Below are positions 4,030 to 10,343 of a stretch of DNA of 13,094 nucleotides, piece by piece. How positions within the stretch are numbered: the stretch's first letter is position 1; each line of letters starts with the position of its first letter. The stretch is taken from positions 1 to 13,094 of the IMG/VR virus record IMGVR_UViG_2703718822_000001; one strand, written 5' to 3'. Position numbers and translations under genes: made by a program. This DNA is from a virus. Taxonomy: Duplodnaviria > Heunggongvirae > Uroviricota > Caudoviricetes. Under the pieces are notes generated by a model. It had not been told where the DNA came from. It did not search any database and saw nothing but the letters and a program-made list of their open reading frames with translations.

Positions 4030-4249
4030 TGTTAACCTCCTGCAACGCTACACGATACGCCTTCTTTATCCACGCCTTACTGCCATATAATTTCGTCTTC
4101 ATAATAAACACACCTGCACGACTCGCCGATATCCCCGGACAGGTTAACAGCACAGCATCCACCACACGGTTATGCTTCCGGAACTCCATTACAGTACTGC
4201 TGATAAGCACCTGCCCCACCGGGCCGTAATCCTGATACAGGATTTTCAC
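4022..4249 (-). CDS. hypothetical protein
   Basis: 75-aa ORF, GTG start at 4249 preceded by AGGAGG at 8-9 nt; GTGA overlap with the stop of the upstream gene. Confidence 0.45.
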   Translation of the reverse strand: MKILYQDYGPVGQVLISSTVMEFRKHNRVVDAVLLTCPGISASRAGVFIMKTKLYGSKAWIKKAYRVALQEVNSE

Positions 4250-6045: not shown

Positions 6046-7014
6046 TTACCCCCTGAAACCCGGTGGAATTTCAGTGTCCGGTTCAGAAATATGATTCACG
6101 CAACTCTGCGCAGGCCCACGCCCAAGACGAATGACCAGTTCATCCCATTTTTCGCGCAGTTTTGCCGGACTCATGATATTTTTTACCCAGAACGGATCCC
6201 GCTGCACCCGACTGAACATTTCACAAATCTGCCGGTGACTGCGGCCATCCAGCATGCGCATCATCCGGACATCGTTAGCCCATGTCGTCCAGTTTGGCTC
6301 TCTGGGGCGAGAAACCTCACCATCATCACTGGCTGCGTGTTCATACAGCGCAACAACACGCCCCCAGATCCACTGCGCACAGGTAATATCATCACGGGTT
6401 CCCCACTGTCGCTTCGGCACATTCCACGTATGCGCATCAGGGTGTTTATCCAGAAAGCGTTCAACCGGAGATGATTTTTTTTCGTCCGGAAGTGAAACGT
6501 CCGGACAAGAAGATCTTTTATCTGACGGATCAAGTTTTAATACTGACGGATCGGGGTCAATCATCGCCCCCCTAATCGGCTGTTTTTTATCAATGGTTGA
6601 CCCCTCAGAATTTGACGGGTCAACCATTGAGGGGTCAATATTTGACGGGTCAACTGTTAACGGGTCATTTTTTGCCGGGCTAATTTTTCTTTTCGGTTTA
6701 TATGCCTCACGCGCCGCCGCTGCCGCTGCTTCGAGTTTTTCCACATTAAGCCGATAGATATTGCTTACGTTACGCCCACCGATCTTACGCTCTTCCTTCG
6801 TCAGCCAGCCCTCTTTCGCCAGTTCTGCAATCGCAGATTTCACGGTGGATTCACTTCTGGCACCGATCTGACGCCGGATCGTTTCCATAGCAGGCCATGA
6901 CACCCCCTCGTCATTGCTGTAATCTGCAAGACGGGCCATTACTGCCACCCTTGATAAGATCATGCCAGTGAAGGCGCATCCTTCCCAGACAAGACCATGA
7001 AGCTTGCTGCTCAT
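6046..7014 (-). CDS. replication initiator (lambda O analogue / YdaU-like) with origin embedded in its linker region
   Basis: ATG at 7012-7014 with GGGGG RBS 5 nt upstream (the ORF-track start at 7029 is a GTG). N-terminal winged-helix-like domain, central D/P/S-rich repetitive linker (DPLTVDPSNIDPSMVDPSNSEGSTID...) that is encoded by the iteron DNA, then a C-terminal domain. Confidence 0.8.
   Translation of the reverse strand: MSSKLHGLVWEGCAFTGMILSRVAVMARLADYSNDEGVSWPAMETIRRQIGARSESTVKSAIAELAKEGWLTKEERKIGGRNVSNIYRLNVEKLEAAAAAAREAYKPKRKISPAKNDPLTVDPSNIDPSMVDPSNSEGSTIDKKQPIRGAMIDPDPSVLKLDPSDKRSSCPDVSLPDEKKSSPVERFLDKHPDAHTWNVPKRQWGTRDDITCAQWIWGRVVALYEHAASDDGEVSRPREPNWTTWANDVRMMRMLDGRSHRQICEMFSRVQRDPFWVKNIMSPAKLREKWDELVIRLGRGPAQSCVNHISEPDTEIPPGFRG
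6550..6706. repeat. candidate replication origin: iterons plus AT-rich region inside the O-like gene
   Basis: At least four direct repeats of (T)TGACGGGTCAA-like units at about 15-bp spacing (6611-6667: tttgacgggtcaacc / attgaggggtcaata / tttgacgggtcaact / gttaacgggtca), with further copies at 6553-6560 (ggggtcaa) and inverted at 6597-6604 (ttgacccc). Flanked by AT-rich ttttttgccgggctaatttttcttttcggtttatat (6667-6706). Confidence 0.6.
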
Positions 7015-9984: not shown

Positions 9985-9987
9985 AAA

Positions 9988-10139
9988 AGTGAATTTTGTG
10001 ATGCGGTGAATGCGGCTCAGCGCACGCGGAACAGTTAAAACCAAAAACAGTGTTATGGGTGGATTCTCTGTATCCGGCGTTAATTGTTAACTGGTTAACG
10101 TCACCTGGAGGCACCAGGCACCGCATCACAAAATTCATT
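9988..10139. repeat. long inverted repeat (18-bp perfect core, about 21 bp extended) bracketing 110 bp between dicF and dicB
   Basis: 9991-10008 GAATTTTGTGATGCGGTG is the exact reverse complement of 10119-10136 CACCGCATCACAAAATTC; pairing extends to 9988/10139 with one G-T. The loop contains GTTAAC-TG-GTTAAC (10087-10100) and CCTGG-aggca-CCAGG (10104-10118). Confidence 0.5.
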
Positions 10140-10154
10140 GTTGAGGACGCGATA

Positions 10155-10343
10155 ATGGAAAAGTTATCATGTAATGCCAGCACGTCTGAACTTCGTTTCG
10201 AAATTGGCGTTATCACTGGAGACAAAACATTTATTGAAGACGCCATTAAGCAGAGAAAACTCGAGCAGGACCTGTTAAATGAAGTATGCATTCCTTCAAT
10301 GCTGGCTCGTCTGGACCTGCTGCAAAAAGGATATAAACAATGA
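10155..10343 (+). CDS. dicB: DicB cell-division inhibitor (MinC-dependent FtsZ antagonist)
   Basis: 62 aa: MEKLSCNASTSELRFEIGVITGDKTFIEDAIKQRKLEQDLLNEVCIPSMLARLDLLQKGYKQ. Closely parallels E. coli DicB as I recall it (same length; FEIGV...TEDAI..RK...LLN..CI.SMLARL). GAGGA RBS. Stop overlaps the ydfD-like ATG (ATGA). Confidence 0.85.
   Translation: MEKLSCNASTSELRFEIGVITGDKTFIEDAIKQRKLEQDLLNEVCIPSMLARLDLLQKGYKQ

Follow-up and report, generated by a model that had tools for sequence, protein, structure and literature searches.

Why does the spacer between the sRNA gene dicF and the toxin gene dicB carry a long inverted repeat, and what do the arms of that repeat enclose? The question arises from a 13,094-nt stretch of viral DNA (herein the window, to which all positions refer unless K-12 is named), in which an earlier note had singled out this repeat. 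We combined repeat and structure searches, comparison of homologs, and published K-12 data to ask whether the repeat acts as DNA or as RNA, what kind of RNA lies between its arms, and what its position implies for the separation of DicF from the dicB message.

A Long Inverted Repeat Separates dicF from dicB

The window carries the early-left operon of a Qin/Rac-like prophage. YdaT-like, Cro-like, and repressor-like genes (7037 through 8212) and a DUF1391 gene (8430 through 8666) are followed by the DicF sRNA (9927 through 9978, + strand), which is a full-length match to Rfam RF00039 at 77 bits and runs into its terminator U-tract (9979 through 9984, + strand). The dicB coding sequence (10155 through 10343, + strand; Pfam DicB PF05358, 131.8 bits, full length) is preceded by the Shine-Dalgarno sequence GAGGA (10143 through 10147, + strand); a DUF1482 gene (10340 through 10531) and an exonuclease gene (from 10625) lie downstream.

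A repeat search places the arms of the inverted repeat at 9985 through 10008 and 10119 through 10142 (24 nt, 92% complementary, spacer of 110 nt). The proximal arm starts directly after the U-tract and forms, on the + strand, the 5′ strand of an extended closing helix that we call P1; it is well paired from 9988 through 10008. The distal arm is the 3′ strand of the same helix, also on the + strand. Read directly from the sequence, the perfect core measures 18 bp (9991 through 10008 with 10119 through 10136), and the further pairs U9990-A10137, G9989·U10138, and A9988-U10139 bring the helix to 21 bp (arms 9988 through 10008 and 10119 through 10139). The repeat search and the sequence thus confirm what the earlier note had described, an 18-bp perfect repeat, or 21 bp with one G·U, around a 110-nt spacer. 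Its statement that such a repeat is longer than chance would give in 13 kb also holds, as the expectation for a perfect 18-mer inverted repeat within 400 nt is 13,094 × 400 × 4^-18, or ∼1e-4. The distance to dicB has to be revised: the distal arm was said to end 16 nt before the ribosome binding site (RBS), but it ends 3 nt before the Shine-Dalgarno sequence and 15 to 16 nt before the ATG at 10155.

The repeat heads the list of inverted repeats in the whole 13-kb window. Two other sizeable repeats are present, one at 6590 through 6645 (27 nt, 74% complementarity, 2-nt spacer) and one at 4219 through 4238 with 4521 through 4540 (20 nt, 90% complementarity, arms 282 nt apart). The RNA spanning 9915 through 10175 has a predicted folding energy of −97.1 kcal/mol (z = −5.7), which none of 200 shuffled sequences equaled; both arms form a single continuous helix in the predicted fold. 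If irregularities are allowed, the helix extends up to 24 to 28 bp.

The Helix Is Conserved as Plus-Strand RNA

The dicF–dicB region is 97% identical to that of the Qin prophage of K-12. Within the arms there are two differences only, at 10004 and 10122, where the window has C and K-12 has U; each converts a G-C pair to G·U in K-12, and pairing is kept. Homologs were drawn from annotated phages, Escherichia coli genomes, and IMG/VR contigs, giving 151 loci that reduce to 25 distinct arm combinations. Read as + strand RNA, 517 of 525 cells are paired; the − strand reading gives 476. Seven kinds of single change keep pairing, each through G·U, and six kinds break a pair, mostly as singletons. 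Four kinds of compensatory double change are seen (C-G to U-A at 10004:10123, A-U to G-C at 10001:10126, U-A to G-C at 9999:10128, and U-A to C-G at 9990:10137), and the close relationship of the homologs means that few independent events lie behind these covariation counts. One copy from Scandinavium pairs GUG with UGU wholly by wobble.

When 26 distinct sequences were aligned with MAFFT, 98.2% of the cells in the 21-bp helix were paired; six pairs vary on one side via G·U and three on both sides (U-A to C-G, A-U to G-C, and C-G to U-A). The observed measures were reached by none of 500 shuffles, and sliding the partner strand by one to three columns reduced pairing to 33 to 43% (n = 26). The proportion of single-substitution types that keep pairing (7 of 13) is about what transitions alone would give (52%). 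As about half of the possible transitions keep pairing anyway, the case for selection rests on the compensatory doubles, the frequency of pairing variants, and the strand asymmetry. The helix is an RNA feature of the + strand. The earlier note had suggested looking for the repeat, with compensatory changes, in K-12 and other prophages, where both wobble-preserving and compensatory changes are indeed found (26 distinct sequences; 151 loci). The long double-stranded stem that it pictured, closing a structured 110-nt loop, likewise stands: the helix is conserved and its interior is a conserved multihelix RNA.

The same variation bears on a reading of the repeat as DNA, in which the arms would be paired binding sites for a phage or host protein, as the palindrome pair proposed in the earlier note, or would extrude as a cruciform. 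The symmetry itself is the one point in its favor. The commonest polymorphisms (C/T at 10004, 10122, 10121, and 10138; A/G at 10133 and 10120) break the symmetry of the DNA but keep G·U pairs in the + strand RNA, which argues against paired protein-binding sites. The excess of pairing on the + strand and the wobble-only pairing of the Scandinavium copy also count against it, and we regard a DNA-level function of this kind as highly improbable.

The Arms Enclose a Relative of STnc100/PasD

The 110-nt “loop” is a five-helix pseudoknotted domain and a subthreshold relative of Rfam STnc100/PasD. In a permissive scan, residues 9992 through 10132 match STnc100 (RF02076) at 37.4 bits (E = 7e-7; model positions 21 through 154 of 206); this does not reach the gathering cutoff of 47 bits, and a scan at gathering level gave DicF alone. 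All variants retrieved score 33 to 44 bits against STnc100, vs. 207.7 bits for the canonical copy downstream of stx2B. STnc100 and PasD are prophage sRNAs without an established function.

To describe the domain we aligned 18 sequences, comprising dicB and kil early-operon copies, copies from the P1/P7 tRNA operon and from a Klebsiella phage, and Stx and other late-region copies (seven canonical STnc100). Across P1, P2, P4, and P5, 92.1% of cells are paired (n = 18), vs. 76.7% when shuffled and 30 to 41% when slid, and 14 pairs have changed on both sides. RNAalifold by itself recovers P1, P2, and P5. In the common architecture, P1 closes on GGUG/CACC and is followed by an AAU junction, P2, the variable P3, P4, and P5, whose AGGCA loop is invariant.

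In the window, all of these elements lie on the + strand. Hairpin P2 (10012 through 10027) is formed by G10012-C10027, C10013-G10026, G10014-C10025, G10015-C10023, and C10016-G10022, with A10024 bulged; 100% of its cells pair (n = 18), G-C and C-G are swapped at three pairs between subfamilies, and RNAalifold predicts the hairpin independently. The variable region P3 (10039 through 10075) differs among homologs by insertions and deletions. Hairpin P4 (stem 10076 through 10085 with 10093 through 10102; loop GUUAACU, 10086 through 10092) shows compensation in Rac-type copies, where G-C has become U-A and U-A has become G-C. Hairpin P5 (CCUGG-AGGCA-CCAGG, 10104 through 10118) is 100% paired, its middle pair being U-A in 9 of 18 sequences and G-C in the other 9; the loop is invariant and the hairpin abuts the 3′ strand of P1.

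The P4 loop provides the 3′ strand of a pseudoknot. Its 5′ strand, CAGUUAA (10032 through 10038, + strand), pairs with UUAACUG (10087 through 10093), and RNAalifold pairs the corresponding segments, joining columns 58 through 61, after P2, to columns 139 through 142 in the P4 loop. Phage copies contain at least five further pairs of complementary strands (CUGGUG/CACCAG, AUCAGC/GCUGAU, AAGGUUG/CAACCUU, UGGUUAU/AUAACCA, and CCAG/CUGG). Enterobacterales genomes contributed 80 family members with 48 versions of the pseudoknot, and the cognate duplexes have a mean energy of −6.7 kcal/mol vs. −4.1 kcal/mol for noncognate combinations. Covariation of this pairing of the P2/P3 linker with the P4 loop extends over the whole STnc100-like family. 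The displayed Rfam consensus structure line for STnc100 marks these positions as unpaired.

Other identities for the interior were considered and set aside. ARAGORN found no match to tRNA or tmRNA; the likeness to a cloverleaf is loose, and the P4 loop lacks the conservation expected of an anticodon loop. Of the Rfam families, ribozymes and riboswitches included, DicF and STnc100 are the only ones to appear at E values up to 10. Units with the same boundaries measure 183 to 209 nt, and their lengths differ by nonmultiples of 3, so that the interior is not coding. A GTG open reading frame (10050 through 10343) is merely an in-frame upstream extension of dicB and was rejected as a separate gene. 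One RefSeq genome annotates dicB with a 32-codon N-terminal extension starting inside the RNA domain, probably an annotation artifact. A promoter scan of the unit returned two weak promoter-like matches against 0.9 expected. A terminator scan of 9600 through 10400 returned no terminator-like site; it missed the DicF terminator too, so that this absence is weak.

The Closing Stem Is Lengthened Mainly in the dicB/kil Lineage

In relatives of the domain the closing stem usually measures 6 to 10 bp, and it is stretched to at least 21 bp mainly in the dicB/kil lineage. Of 119 family members in GTDB species genomes, 108 have a P1 of at most 10 bp and only 6 have one of at least 18 bp; 5 of these 6 long-stem members have the AAGTGAATTTT proximal arm that is common to dicB-, kil-, and related early-operon copies. 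Relatives are found in Stx, P1/P7, and Klebsiella phages, where P1 measures 9 bp in the P1/P7 copies, 14 to 18 bp in the Klebsiella phage copies, and 8 bp in canonical STnc100.

The dicB-type copy and STnc100/PasD share the P1 through P5 architecture, with helices that covary between subfamilies, and both reside on Enterobacterales prophages. They differ in several respects. The dicB-type P1 is 21 to 24 bp long whereas that of canonical STnc100 is ∼8 bp; the dicB-type copy lacks the 3′ single-stranded region and a terminator of its own, and an RBS follows directly (the Shine-Dalgarno sequence lies 3 nt past the distal arm), whereas canonical copies have a terminator 30 to 50 nt downstream. The dicB-type copy belongs to the early-left operon, and canonical STnc100 is a late-region RNA found downstream of stx.

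At least five different open reading frames, chiefly DicB and Kil, follow the long-stem version, and the cassette is found upstream of kilR in Rac-type prophages and Stx1 phages. In the Rac prophage of K-12, the same cassette lies between the sRNA KilS (b4833) and kilR, its two arms bounding 1418249 through 1418405 on the − strand; KilS ends at a CCGCCC-UUUUU terminator directly before the Rac proximal arm. Against the Rfam DicF model KilS scores 39 bits, under the 48-bit cutoff. Rac and Qin thus have a common layout, in which an sRNA with a leaky terminator is followed by a long helix around a structured domain and then by a cell-division inhibitor.

Several further arrangements were observed. 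KilS (K-12 Rac 1418405 through 1418502, − strand) seems to be a diverged paralog of DicF that occupies the corresponding position ahead of kilR. Another subtype of the domain, at ∼40 IMG/VR loci, has P1 strands GUUGUGGUG/CACCACAAC and then TGCTGTGTGTAGTCCTGGCGGTACCAG, which is close to the body of KilS; the order in this subtype, the domain and then a DicF/KilS-like RNA, is the reverse of that in Qin and Rac. P1-family phages (P7, the P1-like plasmid pSX4-3, and phage D6) carry a short-stem copy in a tRNA operon, between tRNA-Thr or tRNA-Ser and terB or tRNA-Ile, and in P7 a tRNA-Sec-like match (46.6 bits; cutoff 47) lies just upstream of the copy. In several Enterobacterales genomes two family members lie 340 to 630 nt or a few kilobases apart on one contig, one of these being a Pantoea megaplasmid, which suggests tandem or clustered copies.

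The distribution also addresses a second alternative from the earlier note, in which the arms would be the terminal inverted repeats of a small nonautonomous element (MITE) inserted between dicF and dicB. A unit of ∼155 bp with 24-nt terminal inverted repeats does have the general shape of a MITE, and the unit used as a query occurs at several places per genome (median 2), as the note had suggested checking; these multiple copies are those of paralogous prophages. There is no target-site duplication, as the flanks CCCTTTTTT and GTTGAGGACG share no direct repeat. Nor are there empty sites: in the viral-contig sample the unit is present at 107 of 107 complete DicF loci, 103 with the strict pattern and 4 as point variants, and so it is not a MITE by this measure. 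Every long-stem copy occupies the same operon slot in the same orientation, just upstream of dicB, kil, or another early-operon open reading frame; the dicB and K-12 Rac copies directly follow the DicF or KilS terminator; and relatives in other contexts share the interior, not the arms. We find an origin as a mobile element scarcely credible.

The Helix as a Probable Site of RNase III Processing

According to two papers that cite Faubladier 1990 (PMC5069750 and PMC9438474), and so at second hand, DicF has two 3′ ends: a 53-nt form ends at the terminator, and a 72-nt form results from RNase III processing of full-length dicBF mRNA. In K-12, dicF is annotated at 1649382 through 1649434; counting 72 nt from its 5′ end leads to 1649453, equivalent to position 9999 in the window, a placement that is arithmetic on gel-derived sizes and has an error of a few nucleotides. 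Position 9999 lies midway along the proximal arm; the inner end of the helix is 9 bp away and the outer end 11 to 14 bp. That the reported 3′ end maps to the center of the helix supports the RNase III reading.

In vivo, the positions between the two RNase III cuts are paired, usually including a G-C, and the substrate valley is ∼22 bp (PMC6212723). The helix (21 bp, 18 of them perfect) has the length of a double-cleavage substrate (∼20 to 22 bp or more). With a cut after 9999 (+ strand, transferred from K-12 coordinates), the geometry of a 2-nt 3′ overhang would put the partner cut after 10129, so that dicB mRNA would start at 10130 (+ strand). The pairs between these putative staggered cuts, G9998-C10129 and U9999-A10128, would then include a G-C, in line with the published rule and dependent on the assumed cut. 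The product of such a double cut would be an RNA of ∼130 nt (10000 through 10129, + strand) made of a 9-bp stub of P1 and the STnc100-like domain. We infer both the exact positions and the double nature of the cut; the corresponding K-12 coordinates, 1649453/1649454 and 1649583/1649584, are directly checkable predictions.

Transcriptome data touch the same spacer. Gordon 2017 (Table S1) lists K-12 position 1649470, in the dicF–dicB intergenic region and flagged as a known site, with 26 reads in the rnc mutant vs. 0 in both wild-type replicates, weak support given 26 reads in a long table with many low-count entries. The position falls inside the enclosed domain. A second rnc-dependent position, 1418510 in the kilR–sieB intergenic region, was considered as support for the helix and discarded, as it maps upstream of KilS, outside the Rac copy of the helix. 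It is contained in a hairpin upstream of KilS that is analogous to a long irregular hairpin upstream of DicF in the window (9709 through 9794). The 3′ foot of the latter lies ∼190 nt from the DicF terminator, and the hairpin is a candidate RNase III site for a 190-nt precursor.

In a 2023 paper from the same laboratory (PMC10448788), RNase III is mentioned solely in connection with a 5′ end upstream of DicF, that of a 190-nt species. Authors who cite the 1990 study disagree on which DicF end is made by RNase III, the 5′ end of the 190-nt species (PMC10448788) or the 3′ end of the 72-nt form (PMC5069750 and PMC9438474). The window contains a suitable helix for each of the two.

The proposed course of events is as follows. 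In transcripts that read through the DicF terminator, the arms pair into a helix of 21 to 24 bp, the lengthened closing stem P1 of a compact, pseudoknotted P1 through P5 domain of the prophage STnc100/PasD family. At about two turns of double-stranded RNA, this helix is of the size that RNase III accepts, and the enzyme most likely cuts both strands near the center, after 9999 and after 10129. Such a cut would yield a 72-nt DicF whose 3′ end lies 19 nt past the terminated form, would free a structured domain of ∼130 nt, and would leave dicB mRNA with a 5′-monophosphate and a 25-nt leader. We consider it highly probable that the inverted repeat is the stretched closing stem of an STnc100-family domain and an RNase III site that splits read-through transcripts into 72-nt DicF, an excised domain, and dicB mRNA. 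The earlier note had seen in the stem an RNase III substrate tied to DicF maturation, and this view gains support from the conservation of the helix, its structured interior, and the cited 72-nt DicF with a 3′ end at 9999.

The helix could serve mainly for maturation or excision of the STnc100-like domain as a third product of the operon, in the manner of the long helices that flank rRNA in its precursors, with the separation of DicF from dicB as a side effect; this is compatible with cleavage at the lengthened stem as set out above and differs from it only in the target of selection. The domain is strongly constrained, with five helices and a pseudoknot that all covary; at least four unrelated phage contexts have retained it; and canonical STnc100 RNAs accumulate in EHEC, one having been seen by Northern blot. 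Set against this, reads over the K-12 interior come from the rnc mutant alone, the wild type having none, which suggests that the released piece fails to accumulate; the 3′ single-stranded region and terminator of STnc100 are missing from the dicB-type copy; and the STnc100 family is without a known function. On balance we hold this emphasis on the third product to be rather unlikely, with some weight left to it. The missing wild-type reads over the interior are a hint that cleavage leads to decay of the interior and not to a stable product. A bolder form of the idea, which we put forward as speculative and judge unlikely, is that the dicF–dicB and KilS–kilR spacers encode as third product a ∼130-nt pseudoknotted RNA of STnc100/PasD type, excised by RNase III because its stem is lengthened, in which the invariant core (GGUG-AAU, UCACC, the AGGCA loop, and the covarying pseudoknot) would bind a host or phage factor, or else a ligand, instead of being a passive spacer.

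The Helix and Translation of dicB

The proximity of the distal arm to the Shine-Dalgarno sequence raises another role for the helix. With an outward extension, in which the U-tract and the CCGCCC segment pair with the dicB Shine-Dalgarno region, it could act as a translational gate, and an RNase III cut or melting would free the RBS. Minimum-energy folds do run the helix outward, pairing UUUUAA with UUGAGG, and three different downstream genes have comparable outward pairs that extend as far as their RBS region. The Shine-Dalgarno sequence is predicted to be unpaired with a probability of 0.14 before the assumed cut, in the read-through RNA, and of 0.83 after it. The pairing of the Shine-Dalgarno sequence with the terminator U-tract in the minimum-energy fold is weak, and the outward pairs are mostly G·U. 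For the whole RBS (−14 to +3), the cut brings no drop in opening energy (8.6 against 8.8 kcal/mol in the window; 3.6 against 7.6 kcal/mol in K-12), and the CCGCC segment is needed by the DicF terminator hairpin, which forms first. To a gate on dicB translation, as the earlier note had suggested it, we give a low but real probability.

Relation to Known Systems

RNase III processing of K-12 dicBF (Faubladier, Cam and Bouché 1990, as cited in PMC5069750 and PMC9438474) takes place at the same operon position, and the site in the window is its ortholog. The RNase III reading of the repeat, while supported, has been in the literature since 1990 and amounts to a rediscovery. The dicBF literature that we searched contains no description of the helix, of the conserved domain that it encloses, or of the same cassette before kilR. 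Likewise, we found no report in the literature searched of the spacer as a relative of STnc100/PasD, of the covarying pseudoknot, of a cassette shared by Rac and Qin, or of a lineage-specific lengthening of the stem. These new points are incremental, not surprising, and do not overturn the current understanding.

They give a concrete structural basis to the RNase III step that parts the sRNA DicF from the toxin message. A segment of this well-studied “spacer” proves to be a subthreshold member of a very common prophage RNA family without known function, and the covarying pseudoknot could help to redefine the STnc100 family and to design experiments on it.

The arrangement resembles two classes of RNase III substrate in part. 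In pre-rRNA, sequences on the 5′ and 3′ sides of 16S and 23S come together as an RNase III helix, both strands of which are cut, so that the rRNA is excised. As in these stems, distant flanks at the dicF–dicB site pair into a long helix around a structured RNA, and a double cut is proposed; unlike them, the site encloses 110 nt and not 1.5 to 2.9 kb, the enclosed RNA is without known function, and the helix also separates an sRNA from an mRNA. RNase III sites of the T7 R1.1 type and in the lambda N leader consist of a simple hairpin, in which an internal loop often confines cutting to one strand. Like these, the dicF–dicB helix lies in a phage early polycistronic transcript just upstream of an RBS; unlike them, it is nearly perfect and closes a pseudoknotted multihelix domain.
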